Below, piece by piece: positions 11,640-22,889 of a stretch of DNA of 26,722 nt (position 1 is its first letter; each line of letters starts with the position of its first letter). Made by a program: the position numbers and the translations under genes. Source of the DNA: a virus (lineage: Duplodnaviria > Heunggongvirae > Uroviricota > Caudoviricetes). The notes under the pieces are model-generated. The model searched no databases, was not told the DNA's origin, and saw nothing but the letters and a program-made list of their open reading frames with translations. The stretch lies in the IMG/VR virus record IMGVR_UViG_2531839454_000026, one strand, 5' to 3'.

Positions 11640-13391
11640 ATGATTCAGGACGCTTTTGTGCGCCAGCGTGCGCGGCAACTTTACTGGCAGGGTTATCCGC
11701 CCGCAGAAATATCACGTCTGATGGGAATAAACCCGAACACGATTTATGCGTGGAAAAAACGTGACCAGTGGGATGAAACGCCCCCCGTGCAGCGTGTCAC
11801 GCAGTCCATCGATGCGCGCCTCATCCAGCTTACTGAAAAACAGAATAAAACAGGCGGTGACTTTAAGGAAATAGACCTGCTGACACGGCAGCTTAAAAAG
11901 CTGCATGATGGCCAGCCGGATGTGATGGCCGCAGGAAAGAAAGGCCGGGCGAAAAAACTCAAAAATCATTTCACGCCGGAACAGATTGCCGCACTGCGGG
12001 AAAAAATCATCAGCAGGCTGGAGTGGCATCAGCGGAGCTGGTTTGACTCCCTGACCCTTTGCAGGGAAGCCGGGATACGTAACAGGATGATCCTGAAATC
12101 CCGACAGATTGGGGCGACCTGGTATTTTGCACAGGAAGCACTGCTGATGGCGCTGCGTGACGATGTGGCGCAACCTTACCAGCGTAACCAGATTTTTTTG
12201 TCTGCGTCGCGTCGTCAGGCGTTCCAGTTTAAAAGCATTATTCAGAAGGCCGCGGCTGAAGTTGATGTGGAGCTGAAAGGGGGCGATAAAATCATCCTCT
12301 CCAACGGCGCAGAGCTGCATTTTCTCGGCACTTCTGCTGCGTCGGCACAGTCCTATACGGGCAATTTTTATTTTGATGAATTTTTCTGGGTCAGTCGCTT
12401 TGCTGAACTGCGCAAGGTGGCTGGCGCTATGGCAACCCTCAGCGGACTGCGGCGCACCTACTTCTCCACGCCATCCACCGAAACGCACGAGGCATACGCC
12501 TACTGGAACGGCGACCGCTGGAACGAGAAAAAGGCCTCGCATAAACGCCAGCGTTTTTCTGTGGACTGGAAAACGCTGCATAACGGGCTTATCTGCCCTG
12601 ACCGGACGTGGCGGCAAATTGTCACGCTGGAAGATGTGGTTAATCACGGCTGGAAACACACCGATATTGATGAAATTCGTGATGAAAACACCGAAGACGA
12701 GTTCCTCAATCTCTATATGTGTGAGTTTGTCCGCGAAGGGGAATCGGCATTTAACCTGAATATCCTGATTGGCTGTGGCGTTGACGGATACGACGACTGG
12801 AAAGACTGGAAACCTTTTGCTCCCCGCCCGATGGGGAATCGTCCGGTATGGATTGGGTATGACGCAAACGGCAGCAGTGGCAACGGCGACAGCGGCGCTG
12901 TGTCCGTGGTGGTTCCTCCGGCTGTTCCTGGGGGCCGTTTTCGAACGGTGGAGACGCGACGCGTTCAGGGGCTGGAGTTTGAAGAACAGGCCAGAGTCAT
13001 TGAAGAGTTCACGTGTCGCTACAACGTGGAACACATCGGCATTGATGTGACGGGCGGGAACGGGGAGGCTGTTTATCAGATAGTGAAACGGTTTTTCCCT
13101 GCTGCTATTCCGTACACCTTCACGCTGTCATCAAAACGGTCGCTGGTACTGAAAATGCTGCAAATAATGCGTGCCGGGCGGTGGGAATACGATCGCGCCG
13201 AACGCGAGCTGGTCGCGGCCTTTAACGCCGTGCGTAAGGTGAAAACACCGGGCGGCTTTATCACTTACGAAACGGACCGCGCGAGGGGGATCAGCCACGG
13301 CGACCTTGCGTGGGCAACCATGCTCGCTGTCATTAACGAACCGATTGGCGGCGAAGGAGAAAACGAGCGTTTCACGGTTATGGAGTTCTGA
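11640..13391 (+). CDS. P: Terminase ATPase (large) subunit P
   Basis: 583 aa, RBS GGGGGAG; size and position as P2 gpP; stop overlaps Q start (TGATG). Confidence 0.9.
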   Translation: MIQDAFVRQRARQLYWQGYPPAEISRLMGINPNTIYAWKKRDQWDETPPVQRVTQSIDARLIQLTEKQNKTGGDFKEIDLLTRQLKKLHDGQPDVMAAGKKGRAKKLKNHFTPEQIAALREKIISRLEWHQRSWFDSLTLCREAGIRNRMILKSRQIGATWYFAQEALLMALRDDVAQPYQRNQIFLSASRRQAFQFKSIIQKAAAEVDVELKGGDKIILSNGAELHFLGTSAASAQSYTGNFYFDEFFWVSRFAELRKVAGAMATLSGLRRTYFSTPSTETHEAYAYWNGDRWNEKKASHKRQRFSVDWKTLHNGLICPDRTWRQIVTLEDVVNHGWKHTDIDEIRDENTEDEFLNLYMCEFVREGESAFNLNILIGCGVDGYDDWKDWKPFAPRPMGNRPVWIGYDANGSSGNGDSGAVSVVVPPAVPGGRFRTVETRRVQGLEFEEQARVIEEFTCRYNVEHIGIDVTGGNGEAVYQIVKRFFPAAIPYTFTLSSKRSLVLKMLQIMRAGRWEYDRAERELVAAFNAVRKVKTPGGFITYETDRARGISHGDLAWATMLAVINEPIGGEGENERFTVMEF

Positions 13392-14437
13392 TGAGCAGAA
13401 AAAATAAAAAAGTGCGCATGAGTTCACGCATTGATCTCGCTGATGCGCTCAGGAAAGAATCGTCGCTCAGTGCATTCACATTTGATGGTCCTTATCGCCT
13501 GACCGGGCATGACCTGCTGGACAATATGTACTGTGCTGATAACGGGCGGTGGTATGAAACCCCGGTGGACTGGTACGGTCTGGCAAGAGCTGCCCGGCAA
13601 ACGTCCTGGCATCAGTCTGCGCTTTACTTTAAGCGCAATGTATTACTCGGTTGCTACATCCCGCACCCGCTGCTTTCCCGGCAGGATTTCTCGGCGCTGG
13701 CGCTGGACTGGTTTGTGTTCGGTAACGCATTCCTTGAGCTTCGAAGCAATATGCTCGGCGAACCGCTTAAATTACGGCACGCCCTGGCGAAATACATGCG
13801 ACGCGGTAGCGATCTTGAATCATGGTGGTATGTGCAGGATGGCAAGGATGCGTTCCAGTTTCGCCCTGGCAAAGTGTGCCACCTGATGAATCCTGACATT
13901 AACCAGGAAATCTACGGCATGCCGGAATATCTCGGCGCATTACTCTCGGCCAGCCTGTCTCATTCGGCGGACATGTTCAGAAAACTGTATTACGACAACG
14001 GATCCCACGCCGGGTGCATCATCTACATCGGTGCAGCGCAGGTAAACCGCGAAAGCATGGACTCCCTGAAAGAAACGCTACAGGGTGCACGTGGTGGCGG
14101 TGCGTTTAAAAACGTGCTCATTCATGCGCCCAACGGGGGTAAAGAGGGGGTGCAAATTTTGCCGTTCCAGCAGATCACCGCAAAGGATGAGTTCATGAAT
14201 GTTAAGGCGGCATCCCGTGATGATGTGCTGGCTGCGCACCGCGTTCCGCCGCAACTGATGGGGGCGATGCCGGGTGAAAAAAGTGCGTTTGGTGATGTGG
14301 AGAAGGCCGCGCGGGTTTACGCAATTAACGAGCTGATGCCCGTCATGGAGGCCATGAAGCACATCAATGACTGGCTTGGCGAAGAGGTGATCCGCTTTAA
14401 CCCTTACGCACTGTTAGATACCCAGCCCACATCCTGA
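13391..14437 (+). CDS. Q: Portal protein Q
   Basis: 348 aa, translationally coupled to P, last gene before the cos-proximal region. Confidence 0.85.
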   Translation: MSRKNKKVRMSSRIDLADALRKESSLSAFTFDGPYRLTGHDLLDNMYCADNGRWYETPVDWYGLARAARQTSWHQSALYFKRNVLLGCYIPHPLLSRQDFSALALDWFVFGNAFLELRSNMLGEPLKLRHALAKYMRRGSDLESWWYVQDGKDAFQFRPGKVCHLMNPDINQEIYGMPEYLGALLSASLSHSADMFRKLYYDNGSHAGCIIYIGAAQVNRESMDSLKETLQGARGGGAFKNVLIHAPNGGKEGVQILPFQQITAKDEFMNVKAASRDDVLAAHRVPPQLMGAMPGEKSAFGDVEKAARVYAINELMPVMEAMKHINDWLGEEVIRFNPYALLDTQPTS

Positions 14438-14766: not shown

Positions 14767-14791
14767 GCGCGCAGAAAAAGCGCGTTTTTTT
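14767..14791 (+). terminator. Candidate intrinsic terminator for the P-Q late transcript
   Basis: CGCGC-AGAAAAA-GCGCG stem-loop followed by TTTTTTT. Confidence 0.45.
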
Positions 14792-14860
14792 GTGCACGCA
14801 CGGATCCCTGACGGATCCAGCCGCCACGCGGGCCAGAAGGGCAAAAATTCGTTCAAAAAA

Positions 14861-14890
14861 ATTGTGCAAATTTGTGCACTATTGTGCGCT
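14861..14890. repeat. Three phased 10-bp tandem repeats (ATTGTGCAAA / TTTGTGCACT / ATTGTGCGCT) upstream of the cassette promoter
   Basis: TTGTGC core repeated three times at exact 10-bp spacing, ending 17 bp upstream of the putative -35. Confidence 0.6.
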
Positions 14891-14906
14891 AAATCGAATC
14901 CCTGTA

Positions 14907-14934
14907 TTGCTTACCAGCTCATTACATGTAAACT
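14907..14934 (+). promoter_or_regulatory. Candidate sigma70 promoter of the ATPase/TOPRIM cassette
   Basis: TTGCTT - 16 nt - TAAACT, about 40 nt upstream of RBS AAGGTGG and ATG 14974; moderate match only. Confidence 0.3.
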
Positions 14935-14973
14935 CAACAGGTAGCAATATTTACTTCCAAAAGGTGGAACAAA

Positions 14974-16173
14974 ATGGCTTTTACAAAAATCAGAATCGAT
15001 AATCTGTTTTGCTTTGAAAATAGCATCCTTGACTTAAGCTTCTCCAGACCCCCGATCAACAGCTCACTGGAAGGTGAGTACATTGATGGATTTGAAAAGT
15101 TCTACTTCAAAAAGGTTTGCATCGTTTCTGGTGCTAATGCATCTGGTAAAACATCTCTTGGTCGCGTGATGCTTTCTGTGTTGCGTTTTCTCAGTAGTGG
15201 TGTTTTCAATCCAGAACCGTTAAAAATTACTGACAAAAGAAAACCTGCATATATAGAGGTTGACTTTTTCCAGAGTCATTTAAAATGTTTGTTTAGGGCA
15301 GGTGTCTGGCTTAGGGCTATGGATGAGTCTGTTGTTGTAGAAAAAATTGCAATGGCATCTGTTGATTTAAGAAGCTCGGAATCATGCGCAAAGACGACCA
15401 AAAGACTGGATGCTGTGTGGGATGCGCAAAAGTTTGAATTAAATGGTCAAAATAGATTTTTTTCAACCGAAAACGCTAACTCAAAAGAATTTTCCCAATA
15501 TTTAGAGGGTTTGGACTTTGTTCTTGGTTGGCATTTCATTCTATCTGAAAACCAAGAGAACACGGATAAAATATCACGAATTAAGAAGAATGTGCTTAAT
15601 AGCATATTAAAAACCTTTGACAATACTGTTAAATCTGTCTCAGGACTCACTCTTAAAGATGATGAGGGAAAGGAGGATTTGCAGGGTTATTCAGTAGTCT
15701 TCAATAATGGAGATAGAGTTATTATTGATATGGAAGGTGATATAACAAATAAAGATAGACTGTCTCGTGGTACTTATGAGGCAGTAAAAATATCCCATCT
15801 CCTGTCAGGAGTGCTTGAAGATAAAATAGAAGAGCGAGAGTTCAATTTCCCTTGCAGTGGGGTGTACTTTTTGGATGAGAAAATGGCCTTCACTCATACT
15901 GAATTAGAAAAAATGATGGTCACGCTGATTATATCTAAGCTTTGCAGATATGGTCAATTTATATACACCACACATAATTATGATATCTTGAGCTTAGATC
16001 TGCCTACGCATTCATATACTTTTACTAAAAAAGTAGATGGTGTAACCACTTTTGTTGAAGCTACCACACATCATAAAAAGAATGATCGCAATCTTTTAAA
16101 TAAAGTAAAAAATGACTGTTTTGCAACAATACCTGACGTTTCATTAATCGAAGAGATGCTATTTGAGGATTGA
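14974..16173 (+). CDS. ABC-type (OLD/AriA/AbiLi-like) ATPase, first gene of accessory cassette
   Basis: 399 aa; SMC/RecF-like N-terminus IRIDNLFCFEN; Walker A GANASGKTS; Walker B VYFLDE; H-loop-like TTHNYD; large insertion between Walker A and B; AT-rich codon usage. Confidence 0.8.
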   Translation: MAFTKIRIDNLFCFENSILDLSFSRPPINSSLEGEYIDGFEKFYFKKVCIVSGANASGKTSLGRVMLSVLRFLSSGVFNPEPLKITDKRKPAYIEVDFFQSHLKCLFRAGVWLRAMDESVVVEKIAMASVDLRSSESCAKTTKRLDAVWDAQKFELNGQNRFFSTENANSKEFSQYLEGLDFVLGWHFILSENQENTDKISRIKKNVLNSILKTFDNTVKSVSGLTLKDDEGKEDLQGYSVVFNNGDRVIIDMEGDITNKDRLSRGTYEAVKISHLLSGVLEDKIEEREFNFPCSGVYFLDEKMAFTHTELEKMMVTLIISKLCRYGQFIYTTHNYDILSLDLPTHSYTFTKKVDGVTTFVEATTHHKKNDRNLLNKVKNDCFATIPDVSLIEEMLFED

Positions 16174-16694
16174 TTATGGCAGTTAAGAAATTTGCTATTA
16201 TTCTTGTTGAGGGAGATACGGAAAAAGCATTGTTTCAGGATTTCAAAACATTGCTAGGCTATCCTATTAAGAAAATAGTAATTGCTAATTTATGGAATGT
16301 TAATATAAATAAATACATGCCAGCATTAACCGAAAATAGCGAAATCATAGTGGTTTTTGATACGGATAGGATTGAGAATCTTGATAGATTTAAGAATAAT
16401 CTCAATCTATTAAAGGCGAAAAAACACACAATCCACCTATTTCAACAAACAAGCAATTTTGAGGATGAGCTTGCCAATGCTTGTGGTGTAAGTAATAGAA
16501 AGTTGTATTCTTGTTTTTGCCCAAAGATCATCTCTGCAGATAACTTCAAGAATGAATTCATTGCGCTGCGCAACAGGATGATGAAATTAGATGGACTTGG
16601 ACTAAATAAAACGTTGCTTTGGAGTAGAGGGATTATCCCCCAATTGAGAGATTATAATTTTCATGTTTCCTCTCATGATGATTATTTTTTATAA
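16170..16694 (+). CDS. Small TOPRIM-like putative nuclease (RloB/DUF4276-like), second gene of accessory cassette
   Basis: 174 aa; start overlaps ATPase stop (ATGA); ILVEGDTE (conserved Glu) and VVFDTDR (DxD) about 50 residues apart = TOPRIM metal-binding signature. Confidence 0.7.
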   Translation: MIMAVKKFAIILVEGDTEKALFQDFKTLLGYPIKKIVIANLWNVNINKYMPALTENSEIIVVFDTDRIENLDRFKNNLNLLKAKKHTIHLFQQTSNFEDELANACGVSNRKLYSCFCPKIISADNFKNEFIALRNRMMKLDGLGLNKTLLWSRGIIPQLRDYNFHVSSHDDYFL

Positions 16695-16736
16695 AAATAA
16701 TAGTCCTCATTAAGATAAACATATTTTAAGACACAA

Positions 16737-16755
16737 GACCGCCAGCTAGGCGGCC
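16737..16755. terminator. Candidate bidirectional terminator between the convergent cassette (+) and parMR (-)
   Basis: CCGCC-AGCTA-GGCGG hairpin with an outer G-C pair, flanked by T-rich sequence on both strands. Confidence 0.35.
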
Positions 16756-16824
16756 TTATATCTTTGACGTTCGACTCCTTATTTGTTGATTGTTTTCAGA
16801 ACTGGAAACCTCCCGTGCAAAGTT

Positions 16825-17136
16825 CTAATCGGGAAATAACGCCCGGATATTTCCGGCCATCTGACTGGTTATCTGTGCGGTGGGGGCTGTCTGTAACATG
16901 TGGCGTTCTGCCCTGGTTTGTGTCACTGATAACGCTTCATCGTCAGCCCATGCAGCCAGTCGGTAAGCCTCTGCCGGATTCATTTTCAGAAGTGCCAGCC
17001 CGGCCAGAAAAGCCACGCGTTGGCCGCTTTTGCGGGCTTCTGGTGTAAGGCTGTCCAGCCAGGCGCATGCTTCGCCTTCGTTCTTGACGGCGGCGGGCTT
17101 CAGATAGAAACTTATCCGTCTGGTTGGTATCGTCAT
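16825..17136 (-). CDS. parR: ParR-like centromere-binding adaptor
   Basis: ATG at 17136 with RBS GGAG, 4 nt after parM stop; 103 aa; RRISFYLKP...LDSLTPEARKSGQRVAFLAGLAL resembles R1 ParR (RRTIAFKLNP...LDSIPQGERSRLNRAALTAGLAL, from memory). Confidence 0.7.
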   Translation of the reverse strand: MTIPTRRISFYLKPAAVKNEGEACAWLDSLTPEARKSGQRVAFLAGLALLKMNPAEAYRLAAWADDEALSVTQTRAERHMLQTAPTAQITSQMAGNIRALFPD

Positions 17137-17140
17137 TGGT

Positions 17141-18100
17141 TTACTCCTTGTCCATTGCGTACAAACCATTGACCAGAGCAAACTGTGGCACCCCGTCCGC
17201 GATGAAAGTCGCATTAACTCCGCAGGCTTCGCGGATAGCGGGTGCCACAATCTCCGCCCCTCCACCGACAACCATCACCCGCCCGTAACCCGAAAAACCC
17301 GCCAGCGCGCGGATCACTCGTTGTTTCAGTGTTTCTTCCTTTTCACGAATAACCGCCATCAGGCTGTCGTAATGCGCGTCATTGTGGATGTGCTGGCGCA
17401 GCCAGGCTTCATCATGGCGATGTTCGATAATGGTATTGGCGATGTGGTGACTGGTGCGCATACCGTTAGTGGCCATCACCGACAGTACGGCATCGGCCAT
17501 CAGAGAAACGCCTACGTGTGGATCGCAAAACACCTGGCTGATACCTGCCAGTTGCCCCTGAACCTTTGCCACATCCAGCGTGGTTCCGCCCAAATCCACA
17601 ATCAGCAGGGATTCAAACGGACTCATGTCAGCCAGTGCCTTAAAGCCAGCCGGAATGGATTCAGGCATAACCCGTACGTTACGGATAGTGAATGCTTCGC
17701 CGTTCTGGTACTCCACCGGGCGCATGACGTTCGCTTTTTTGCGGTTGATGTTGGCCATGTCCGGCTGTGCGTTTGTGTCGAAATACTCGCTCAGTGGCAG
17801 GGTGACAACCACATCCACCTCCTGTGGCGTGATGCCTGATTTGACCAGTGCGTGATGAATGGCAATGACATTCACATCACTGTACTGGTATTGCGTGTCG
17901 GTCGTCTGGACAAAGCGATCGCTGACCGGATCAAAACCATAGCGCACGCCATCAAGCATGTAGTTCGCGGGCTGCGTGCCACCGAACGGCGCAGACCATT
18001 CCGACTTGAAGCTGTTCGGGCTGATGGCGTTGCGGCGTTCGCCGTTCTCAGTCCATGCCAGCTTGATGTTGGTGGAGCCGTCGTCGATACAAATTTTCAT
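17141..18100 (-). CDS. parM: ParM/StbA actin-like segregation ATPase
   Basis: 319 aa; phosphate-1 IDDGSTNIKL, phosphate-2 LIVDLGGTTLDV, adenosine motif VMVVGGGAEIV; N-terminus nearly identical in pattern to R1 ParM. Confidence 0.9.
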   Translation of the reverse strand: MKICIDDGSTNIKLAWTENGERRNAISPNSFKSEWSAPFGGTQPANYMLDGVRYGFDPVSDRFVQTTDTQYQYSDVNVIAIHHALVKSGITPQEVDVVVTLPLSEYFDTNAQPDMANINRKKANVMRPVEYQNGEAFTIRNVRVMPESIPAGFKALADMSPFESLLIVDLGGTTLDVAKVQGQLAGISQVFCDPHVGVSLMADAVLSVMATNGMRTSHHIANTIIEHRHDEAWLRQHIHNDAHYDSLMAVIREKEETLKQRVIRALAGFSGYGRVMVVGGGAEIVAPAIREACGVNATFIADGVPQFALVNGLYAMDKE

Positions 18101-21691: not shown

Positions 21692-21864
21692 GGGGTGGCC
21701 TCTTTGGTTGTAAGTTTTGAAAACTCACCATCCAGAGCTGCGAAACTGTGGGTGGCGAGACGTACGGGGTTCGCAGTACCGGCAACCAAAGAACCCGGCC
21801 CGACCGAAGTCGGCCCCGTACGCCCCGCCATAATTCGTGTGCGAAAAAGACGTGGCAATACAGT

Positions 21865-21897
21865 ACGCACAAAAAAACCGCTGGCGCGGTTGTGCGC
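21865..21897 (-). terminator. Candidate intrinsic terminator inside the early operon
   Basis: On the - strand: AACCGC-GCCA-GCGGTT hairpin immediately followed by TTTTT, with flanking GCGCAC/GTGCGC outer arms. Confidence 0.4.
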
Positions 21898-22027
21898 TTT
21901 GGTTGTCAGCAGGCTGCGAAACCCGGCACCCGTTTTATGAGGTGCAGCGAAAATGTAACCTGACTGATTGCGGCATGGCAAGCGGTTTTTTTGTGAGAAC
22001 GGCATACTAAAAAATCCTGATACTGCT

Positions 22028-22058: not shown

Positions 22059-22889
22059 TTACTTCACCGGAACAAACGGAACAGCGGTATTGCTGGTCAT
22101 GTATTGCGGCAGCGTGCCGTTCCATTTGTTGATTGCTTCCAGCTCCATAACGCCGGGATTCTGGCGCAGAGCTTCACCGCGTAAACGAATGGCGTCGGCT
22201 TCAGCCTGGGCTTTTGTGCGAATGGCATCAGCCTGTCCGGCAGCTTCTGCGCGCAACATGTTGGCTTCTGCTTCGCGCTGTTTTACTTCCTGTTCGCGTT
22301 GCAGGGTTTTCTGGTTCGCTGTGACTTTGGCATTAATGCTGTCGATCACGGTTGGCGGGTATTCCGGTTTACCGACATAAGAGAGGCTCATTACCTGAAT
22401 GCCGATAGGTGTCATTTCTGCCTGAATGTCTTTAAGTGCTGAATCCAGCAGTTCAGACTTGCCACCGTCGATAAACTTATCGGTGGTCATTTTGCTGGCC
22501 AGTCGGTTGAGTGCATCGGCGATCTTTTGGCGCAGGTCAGTGTCGGTAATGTCATCCACGCCTTTGCGGTAGGTCTGAAACACTGTGGTAACTTTGGATG
22601 GATCAACCTTGTAGGCCACACCGATGTGATAGCCGATGGTTGTGCCGTCACTCATCTGAAAGCTGAATGGCTCATCGTAGGTCTTCATTTGTTTGAAGGT
22701 CGGGAAGATGTAAACCTCGGTATTCCAGCCTGTCCAGTAGCGGCCAACGCCAACCACTTCACCGACGCCTTTATCGTCGCCCAGTTTGTTGACTTTGATG
22801 CCCACATTACCTGGCTCAACGCGATCGCAACCAACCAGCAGGATGGCGGCAAAAAGCGGGATAATCTGAAAGAGTTTGAATTTCTTCAT
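22059..22889 (-). CDS. SPFH/band-7 (prohibitin/stomatin-like) lipoprotein
   Basis: 276 aa; signal peptide with lipobox LLVGC; central SPFH-like region followed by Ala/Glu/Gln-rich coiled-coil (QREAEANMLRAEAAGQADAIRTKAQAEADAIRLRGEA). Confidence 0.8.
   Translation of the reverse strand: MKKFKLFQIIPLFAAILLVGCDRVEPGNVGIKVNKLGDDKGVGEVVGVGRYWTGWNTEVYIFPTFKQMKTYDEPFSFQMSDGTTIGYHIGVAYKVDPSKVTTVFQTYRKGVDDITDTDLRQKIADALNRLASKMTTDKFIDGGKSELLDSALKDIQAEMTPIGIQVMSLSYVGKPEYPPTVIDSINAKVTANQKTLQREQEVKQREAEANMLRAEAAGQADAIRTKAQAEADAIRLRGEALRQNPGVMELEAINKWNGTLPQYMTSNTAVPFVPVK

Follow-up and report, generated by a model that had tools for sequence, protein, structure and literature searches.

A compact ABC-ATPase and OLD-type TOPRIM gene pair, closest to AbiL, as a probable anti-phage module in the Q–A hotspot of a P88-like prophage

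Systems that combine an ATPase with a TOPRIM protein (OLD, Gabija, PARIS and retron effectors) are a major theme of bacterial immunity. GajA and other OLD nucleases cut DNA, PARIS AriB cuts tRNA and, according to a recent preprint, P2 Old reportedly cuts tRNA as well. The Q–A slot of P2 holds old and tin. For the AbiL branch we know of no described trigger, target or structure. AbiL and MADS3-4 have the ABC ATPase plus TOPRIM architecture in common with PARIS, Gabija and OLD (Burman et al., PMC11464382), and in PARIS the ATPase AriA sequesters AriB and releases it upon sensing a trigger (PMC11464382). F. nucleatum AbiLii is toxic in E. coli and is not neutralised by AbiLi in trans (PMC3985639). 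The Q–A locus itself is a validated defence hotspot (PMC9122126).

We analysed a 26,722-nt stretch of DNA (the window; IMG/VR record IMGVR_UViG_2531839454_000026) from a P88-like prophage of E. coli, in which a two-gene cassette occupies the Q–A slot, where gpQ (portal) and gpA form conserved flanks around a variable insert. Features of the locus, in window coordinates, are as follows.

14767–14785: terminator-like site between the portal gene and the cassette, from a scan
14888–16825, no strand assigned: cargo island in the Q–A (cos-proximal) hotspot of the P88-like prophage, 1,938 bp, 35.4% GC
14907–14934, + strand: weak, putative promoter, with −35 TTGCTT at 14907–14912, a 16-nt spacer and −10 TAAACT at 14929–14934
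14961–14968, + strand: Shine-Dalgarno AAGGTGGA of gene 1, read from the sequence, with the ATG five bases further on
14974–16173, + strand: gene 1, AbiLi-like Rad50/SMC-type ABC ATPase, 399 aa, 45.6 kDa
15130–15156, + strand: gene 1 Walker A GANASGKTS (aa 53–61)
15760–15774, + strand: gene 1 ABC signature LSRGT (aa 263–267)
15862–15879, + strand: gene 1 Walker B VYFLDE (aa 297–302)
15967–15984, + strand: gene 1 H-loop TTHNYD (aa 332–337)
16165–16169, + strand: Shine-Dalgarno GAGGA of gene 2, within the end of gene 1 and six bases 5' of the ATG at 16176
16176–16694, + strand: gene 2, stand-alone OLD-type TOPRIM protein and putative nuclease effector, 172 aa, 20.0 kDa, pI 8.9
16728–16764, + strand: terminator-like hairpin with a T-rich tail, core CCGCC-AGCTA-GGCGG at 16739–16753, from a scan

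Phage P88 and E. coli GPEC1031 match the prophage up to 14887 and again from 16826/16829; both carry different cargo between the matching flanks. The low GC content claimed in the original prediction holds on exact calculation (35.4% for the island versus 53.4% for the remainder of the window; other 1,938-bp segments have a minimum of 45.6%, a mean of 54.0% and a standard deviation of 3.6), and P2 old matches the cassette in slot and orientation. GC content, flank boundaries and the position of old thus agree with the predicted foreign origin: the cassette is foreign, exchangeable cargo of the Q–A hotspot. The flanks were found in 1,432 of 5,426 complete E. coli genomes and the full cassette in six of the 5,426, with different cargo filling the slot in 1,400+ E. 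coli genomes. The cassette had also been described as lying opposite to its flanking genes, which is true of ParR, ParM and gpA downstream (− strand) but not of the portal and large terminase genes upstream, which share its + strand.

Gene 1 is the predicted 399-aa ORF and contains every motif quoted for it (GANASGKTS, VYFLDE and TTHNYD). Its catalytic set of Walker A, signature, Walker B and H-loop is complete and conserved; the signature, LSRGT, had been overlooked earlier. The fold is that of a Rad50/SMC head, common to PtuA, AriA, OLD and GajA, and in the model the insert between Walker A and signature consists of short helices and strands, without a long coiled coil. The best defence match is PADLOC AbiLi (PDLC02335; E 9.6e-28, 95 bits), a model that matches 120/120 gene 1 relatives, more than any other, and outscores AriA in each. 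PADLOC mad3 also matches (E 2.9e-11, model positions 18–355 of 374), as it does in 114 of the 120 relatives. Motif set, fold and AbiLi match all bear out the assignment to OLD/AriA/AbiLi-type ABC ATPases. Septu membership was ruled out on its partner gene, no PtuB HNH nuclease accompanying the ATPase.

For gene 2, the predicted ORF and its end at 16694 stand; its length of 174 aa is obtained only from a TTG at 16170, an alternative start that would overlap the gene 1 stop as TTGA. The ATG at 16176, which gives 172 aa, is the NCBI start and agrees with the N-termini of all homologues. The protein contains EGDTE (E12, E16; VEGDTE at aa 11–16), DTD (D62, D64; FDTDR at aa 61–65), NFEDE (E96, E98) and K125. 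Across 127 family sequences D62 and D64 never vary, and conservation reaches at least 90% at E12, G13, E16, E96, E98 and K125. Pfam OLD-like_TOPRIM (PF20469) matches marginally, at 24.2 bits for a cut-off of 23.2, and reaches E <= 0.01 in just 18 of the 127 gene 2 relatives. The PADLOC models GajA (TOPRIM part), AbiLii and mad4 match at E 6e-5 to 2e-4 (AbiLii 6e-5, mad4 2.3e-4), AbiLii being the model most often matched among the relatives (82/127 at E <= 0.01, best 1e-7). Pfam RloB, at 17.6 bits, falls short of its cut-off of 31.5.

The AlphaFold2 model of gene 2 (pLDDT 96.2) has a four-strand alpha/beta core followed by helices, with about 70 residues outside the TOPRIM core; E12 comes after strand 7–11, and D62 and D64 lie at or just past the end of strand 56–62. 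In hhalign comparison with the P2 Old family, EGxTE...DxD falls in register with the invariant E398...D453xD455, at a probability of 33–48% that denotes remote similarity. Fold searches with gene 2 were unspecific, and sequence searches of PDB chains with both proteins and both family profiles gave nothing useful, the sole TOPRIM-like match being 1t6t (E 0.042). The above-cut-off PF20469 match, the family-wide motifs and their register with P2 Old support the earlier TOPRIM claim, and gene 2 is best described as a small stand-alone OLD-like TOPRIM protein, predicted to be a nuclease. The family has 342 cluster representatives, and the 150 listed range from 85 to 199 aa.

The pair's family corresponds to PHROG 5836 + 10204. 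Of about 125 homologous loci from Proteobacteria, Firmicutes, Fusobacteria and Treponema, 112 (~90%) have the ATPase and TOPRIM genes adjacent and co-directional with the partner directly 3', and the divergences of genes 1 and 2 correlate (r 0.90; Mantel 0 of 999). For the pair dN lies far under dS, which is saturated, and we take the pair to be under purifying selection. Close copies (62–100% identical) have this Q–A position and orientation in P2-like phages with portals just 49–78% and gpA proteins 30–48% identical. Further homologues were located in phages, on a small plasmid, beside an integrase and between IS elements. Among the 141 ORFs nearest to 38 chromosomal homologues, a few are further ATPase-nuclease defence genes and many are housekeeping genes; given the latter, and with no background control, we make no claim of defence-island enrichment.

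Distribution also bears on whether the pair might be a RecF/RecR-like recombination or replication accessory of the phage, with no immune role. A pattern-limited scan of one genome per species (185,579 species) yielded 77 loci, a sporadic distribution that, like the six occurrences in 5,426 E. coli genomes and the non-essential swap-in slot, argues against such a function. Moreover, neither protein has a Pfam or NCBIfam RecF/RecR match, and defence ATPases and Rad50 score higher, so that we regard this explanation as very improbable.

The original prediction could not place the pair in a named family. It can be placed: its best defence matches are the PADLOC AbiL models, and the exact pair is already listed by Rousset et al. 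(2022) as P2-hotspot system #90 (Table S5B, 37 occurrences), labelled 'AAA_15/AAA_21/SMC_N | RloB' (PMC9122126). That label calls gene 2 RloB, a Pfam family linked to AbiLii (PMC10440598), and the methods of Rousset et al. give HHpred for domain assignment (PMC9122126). The AbiL placement and this listing make the pair less new than the earlier prediction implied. It appears not to be among the systems cloned by Rousset et al. (PMC9122126), and our literature search found no paper mentioning WP_000885992 or WP_000279222 and no phenotype for the pair's family.

Like AbiL of L. lactis, as represented by the PADLOC AbiLi/AbiLii models, the cassette is an operon of two genes in which the ABC ATPase precedes a TOPRIM/RloB-like protein. 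It differs from AbiL in that the AbiLii match of gene 2 is weak and the Pfam RloB score below cut-off, and in host and vehicle, an enterobacterial P2-like prophage here and a lactococcal plasmid for AbiL. A tblastn search of PLSDB plasmids with gene 1 and a Firmicute relative gave no Lactococcus match, only an Acinetobacter plasmid. MADS is also similar, mad3 covering nearly all of gene 1 and mad4 matching gene 2, but here the pair stands alone: the 1.94-kb island contains no methyltransferase, no other mad genes and no helicase gene.

We also considered a divergent PARIS proper (OLD class 4), with genes 1 and 2 as AriA and AriB. Gene 2, however, lacks the DUF4435 domain of AriB (no match to PF14491 at E <= 1), and AriB models are absent from the PADLOC matches of gene 2 and its relatives. 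The proteins are smaller (45.6 and 20.0 kDa, compared to 55 kDa for AriA and 35 kDa for AriB; PMC11464382), the gene 1 model is without the long coiled coil of the Walker A-signature insert, and AbiLi outscores AriA in every relative. PARIS proper, which forms hexamers, senses Ocr and cleaves tRNA, is in consequence highly unlikely. With P2 Old (class 1 OLD) the cassette shares, besides slot and orientation, the register of the TOPRIM motifs and the order of the ATPase motifs, but Old and GajA (class 2) are single polypeptides of ~580–630 aa, whereas here two ORFs are separated by a stop codon; Gabija differs further in its GajB helicase partner. Membership of OLD class 1 or Gabija was ruled out, ATPase and TOPRIM being unfused and a helicase absent from the cargo. 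The roughly 170-aa putative nuclease is without the extra domains that AriB and OLD proteins have around the TOPRIM core.

Each structural element of the predicted split, miniaturised ATPase-nuclease module was thus upheld, and we consider the two genes a likely anti-phage module of the ABC-ATPase plus OLD-type TOPRIM nuclease class, closest to AbiL, with the anti-phage role itself inferred. In the mechanism that we propose, the 46-kDa Rad50-like ATPase would oligomerise, bind the 20-kDa TOPRIM protein and hold it in an inactive state. An infecting phage would provide a cue (candidates are a phage protein, damage or replication intermediates) that alters the state of the ATPase, and the nuclease would be freed or switched on. 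Its two-metal site (E12, D62/D64 and E96/E98, with K125) could then cut nucleic acid, which would halt the competing phage and probably arrest or kill the cell. If the pair is a defence system, we give sequestration and release about an even chance: the putative nuclease is, like that of PARIS, a small polypeptide separate from the ATPase, and this inclines us against a DNA-cutting complex that stays permanently assembled. For AbiL itself a sequestration model is not established (see F. nucleatum AbiLii/AbiLi, PMC3985639). A nuclease kept permanently in an ATP-regulated assembly, like those of Gabija or class 1/2 OLD, would nick or degrade invading DNA with neither release nor cell death. We think this unlikely, since 97/97 full-length pairs taken from the loci encode the ATPase and the nuclease as separate polypeptides, the cassette lacks a GajB-like helicase and the nuclease has so few residues outside its TOPRIM core.

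Alternatively, the pair may act mainly in addiction, with a TOPRIM toxin neutralised by the ATPase, and stabilise a ParM/ParR-bearing prophage rather than exclude other phages. ParR and ParM directly adjoin the cargo, a YafO-family toxin occupies the Q–A hotspot of other prophages, and pairs of AAA ATPase and TOPRIM_OLD behaved as toxin-antitoxin systems in neutralisation assays (PMC10440598). Against this, the slot is the validated defence hotspot (PMC9122126), most homologues reside in chromosomes or in phages without partition genes, and F. nucleatum AbiLi failed to neutralise AbiLii (PMC3985639). We judge addiction in place of defence to be quite improbable; toxin-antitoxin behaviour and abortive defence are, nevertheless, not mutually exclusive.

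Returning to a defence role, it is possible, if rather doubtful, that the PHROG 5836 + 10204 family forms a distinct minimal branch of ATPase plus TOPRIM immune systems, with assembly, trigger and target unlike those of PARIS and Gabija/OLD. Were this true, the pair would be the smallest tractable model of a Rad50-like sensor gating a TOPRIM nuclease, and the AbiL group would gain its first mechanism. Knowledge of the hotspot and of the ATPase plus TOPRIM class is unchanged, the exact pair being in a published catalogue already; what the cassette offers is an E. coli example of the AbiL branch that is self-contained and, at 1.9 kb, compact. Its compactness, its mutable catalytic residues and a hotspot that has already yielded PARIS make it a practical candidate for testing.

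The expression signals were in part as predicted. The strong ribosome-binding site of gene 1 was confirmed, AAGGTGGA lying within a 25-nt leader that hardly varies among seven cassette copies; a conserved hairpin in this 5' leader is no more stable than shuffles (z −1.1). The claim that the cassette has its own candidate promoter fared less well: a scan for consensus sigma-70 promoters upstream of gene 1 gave nothing at its threshold, and the best candidate, at 14907–14934, agrees with the consensus at only 7 of 12 positions; among seven cassette copies in diverged P2-like phages, five retain its hexamers and spacing. The junction of the two genes reads GAGGA-TTGATT-ATG, with the gene 1 stop TGA at 16171–16173 and a gap of 2 nt to the ATG (TGA-TT-ATG), so that the ATGA overlap reported at 16170–16173 is absent; coupled translation is still plausible because the genes are only 2 nt apart. 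Downstream, the predicted hairpin was recovered at 16739–16753 (−12.3 kcal/mol, z −3.3; equalled by one of 200 shuffles), and four further cassette copies (L094, L095, L096 and L013) have other GC-rich hairpins directly 3' of gene 2.

The cassette pairs a Rad50-like ATPase with a separate OLD-type TOPRIM protein, each with a complete catalytic set, in a co-inherited, conserved, swap-in cargo of a defence hotspot. The window holds an entire P2-like Escherichia coli prophage, from the integrase through the tail fibre genes, whose nearest named phages are P88-like (Xuanwuvirus, Peduoviridae), and the 2.7 kb queried around the cassette were 100% identical to strain 504838 (NZ_CP025856). The slot lies at the gpQ-gpA locus, defined as a defence hotspot by Rousset et al. 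2022 (PMC9122126), with the following gene order:

Before the cassette in window orientation, + strand: large terminase
13391-14437, + strand: portal gpQ
Between portal gpQ and gene 1: non-coding stretch
14974-16173, + strand: gene 1, ABC ATPase (399 aa)
16176-16694, + strand: gene 2, putative TOPRIM protein (172 aa)
16825-17136, - strand: ParR-like protein
17141-18100, - strand: ParM (actin-like)
From 18177, - strand: gpA, replication endonuclease

The pair had been described as opposite in strand to its flanking genes, which holds for those on the gpA side and fails for the upstream phage genes, encoded on the same strand. The ParR-like and ParM partition genes (16825-18100, - strand) separate the hotspot from gpA; such a partition system occurs in about one quarter of P2-like phages, which may persist as plasmids (PMC9122126).

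Homology to P88 and to an E. coli prophage with other cargo stops at 14887 and restarts at 16826-16829, and hence the insert is 1,938 bp long. Its low GC content was borne out by exact calculation (35.4% for 14888-16825 versus 53.4% for the remaining window), the lowest value for windows of the same length elsewhere in the prophage being 45.6%. Of 5,426 complete E. coli genomes, 1,432 have the flanks, around diverse inserts (ead/Ea22-like, DUF4760 and YafO toxin genes and others), and six have the full cassette. Copies whose gene 1 product is 62-100% identical occupy the same slot in the same orientation in P2-like phages that are themselves diverged (portal only 49-78% and gpA only 30-48% identical), and the cassette therefore moves between them as a unit. 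In P2 this slot is taken up by old and tin, whose transcription runs from the cos side toward A, the direction also followed by the window cassette.

Both predicted ORFs are real, and every motif quoted for them was found at its stated position. Gene 1 has the strong ribosome-binding site claimed (Shine-Dalgarno AAGGTGGA, 14961-14968), and the expected hairpin lies downstream of the pair (16739-16753, -12.3 kcal/mol, z -3.3). The ATGA overlap proposed to couple the genes does not exist: the junction reads GAGGA TTGATT ATG, with the gene 1 stop TGA at 16171-16173, and gene 2 likely starts at ATG 16176, six bases past GAGGA, which is also the NCBI start and that of all homologues. As to a promoter of its own, scanning 5' of gene 1 yielded no sigma-70 consensus site above threshold; the best candidate, TTGCTT-16-TAAACT (14907-14934), is weak, but five of seven diverged copies of the cassette keep it. 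A 25-nt leader at 14950-14976, ACTTCCAAAAGGTGGAAC(A/T)AAATG, is near-invariant across seven copies, some with only 62-64% protein identity, while synonymous sites of both genes are saturated. It holds a TTCCA/TGGAA inverted repeat overlapping the Shine-Dalgarno of gene 1, and the predicted leader hairpin had no extra stability relative to shuffles (z -1.1).

The gene 1 product matched Pfam AAA_15 above cut-off and gave a confident AF2 model (pLDDT 89.7, pTM 0.90). When 120 homologues sharing 33-87% identity with the window protein were aligned, Walker A G53, N55, G58 and K59, ABC signature R262, S264 and G266, Walker B D301 and E302, and H-loop H334 were invariant. The best PADLOC match was AbiLi (E 9.6e-28), whose model detected 120/120 of the relatives, compared to 114 for mad3 and about 50 for the AriA models.

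An exhaustive profile search for gene 2 gave a family of 342 cluster representatives. Among the 150 listed, lengths were 85-199 aa (150-200 aa in 141), and hence no fused form is among them. Over 127 of those listed, which share 24-55% identity with the window protein, D62 and D64 did not vary, and E12, G13, E16, N38, N75, Q91, E96, E98, K125, L138 and W149 were at least 90% conserved. The very confident AF2 model (pLDDT 96.2) has four strand-helix repeats and then a helical tail, with E12 right behind strand 1 and the DxD closing strand 3, the TOPRIM arrangement. Pfam OLD-like_TOPRIM was passed by 1 bit (24.2 versus a cut-off of 23.2). Weaker support, in each case over the same N-terminal 100 residues, came from PADLOC models (the TOPRIM parts of GajA and ATPase-Toprim, AbiLii and mad4) and from the retron-Eco8 effector model of NCBIfam. 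Profile-profile comparison with the P2 Old family (56 members; probability 48%, E 1.8e-4) placed EGxTE and DxD in register with the invariant E398-G-x-T-E402 and D453-x-D455 of P2 Old. From its sequence, motifs and predicted topology, we accept gene 2 as encoding a TOPRIM protein; the matches from fold searches were unspecific.

Cassette loci (77 sampled in a one-genome-per-species scan, 44 in an IMG/VR scan) came from Gamma- and Betaproteobacteria, Lachnospiraceae and other Firmicutes, Fusobacteria and Treponema. Of about 125 loci that had room downstream, 112 had a gene 2 relative directly 3' of gene 1, on the same strand and a few bases apart, and pairwise distances of the two proteins were correlated (r 0.90, Mantel 0/999, 86 non-redundant pairs). 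Compared with copies that share 84-88% identity in gene 1, gene 1 has a dN of 0.07-0.10 and gene 2 one of 0.14-0.19, low against a dS of about 2-3 and saturated beyond estimation, respectively, so that strong purifying selection acts on both. Homologues also occur in an Acinetobacter prophage, on a 12.7-kb plasmid, next to a lambdoid integrase (E. coli), beside a Cap4 nuclease gene (Psychrobacter) and at IS-flanked sites; the nearest neighbours scanned include a few other ATPase-nuclease defence genes and many housekeeping genes.

The original reading as a candidate anti-phage ATPase-TOPRIM module is right in essentials, and the cassette is a real finding of a known class, caught by existing AbiL models and catalogued already. 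The entries for WP_000885992 and WP_000279222 in Table S5A of Rousset et al. are both labelled 'hypothetical', and curated Table S5B has the pair as system #90, 'AAA_15/AAA_21/SMC_N | RloB', counted 37 times and left without comment. Among the cloned systems in their HHpred table, RloB is listed under PARIS-2 and old-tin only, and hence the pair was apparently not tested there. A search for either accession found no citing paper among those covered, and PHROGs lists both families under unknown function. Burman et al. 2024 (PMC11464382) count AbiL and MADS3-4 among the ABC ATPase-TOPRIM systems, together with PARIS, Gabija and OLD; according to a 2026 review, whether AbiL and RloAB act like PARIS is still open. 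Fusobacterium nucleatum AbiLii was toxic in E. coli and was not neutralised by AbiLi in trans, and lactococcal AbiLii was not toxic (Dy et al. 2014, PMC3985639). In the mechanism we envisage, the ATPase would sense infection and gate the nuclease, which would cut RNA or DNA and so block a competing phage. Purely by analogy, sequestration and release as in PARIS is favoured, given that ATPase and nuclease are split and the latter is very small. The value of the cassette is as a compact, apparently untested representative of the AbiL branch.

Three TTGTGC direct repeats with exact 10-bp spacing (starts 14862, 14872 and 14882) form the final bases of the conserved flank before the cargo (14862-14887). 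The array recurs in P88 and another E. coli prophage, both with different cargo, and in two loci with copies of the cassette (L095 and Erwinia L014); P2 has three ATGCA repeats, spaced about 10-12 bp, at the equivalent place just 5' of the old transcript starts. It may serve whichever cargo occupies the slot, as an operator or promoter of the backbone or as a binding array associated with cos. A terminator-like hairpin (GCGCGC...GCGCGT, then a T run; 14767-14785, + strand) separates the portal gene from the cargo and would shield the cassette from late-gene read-through. Four other cassette loci (L094, L095, L096 and L013) each have a GC-rich hairpin shortly 3' of gene 2, unrelated in sequence, and this terminator seems to be kept or replaced independently among copies. 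In a Piscirickettsiaceae MAG (L087:5079-5921), a single 280-aa ORF matches the HMMs of both gene 1 (E 1e-54) and gene 2 (E 1e-7), which may reflect either misassembly or a deletion that fused the end of the ATPase with the TOPRIM protein. Elsewhere in the prophage, the early region has a gene for an SPFH-domain protein (about 22059-22889, - strand) and a truncated pseudogene of the ash family (21742-22005), as annotated in NZ_CP025856, which may be further accessory cargo. At the window start (about 164-1268), a frameshifted tail-fibre gene fragment and tfaE in opposite orientation adjoin a recombinase gene, an arrangement resembling an invertible tail-fibre segment of which one copy has decayed.
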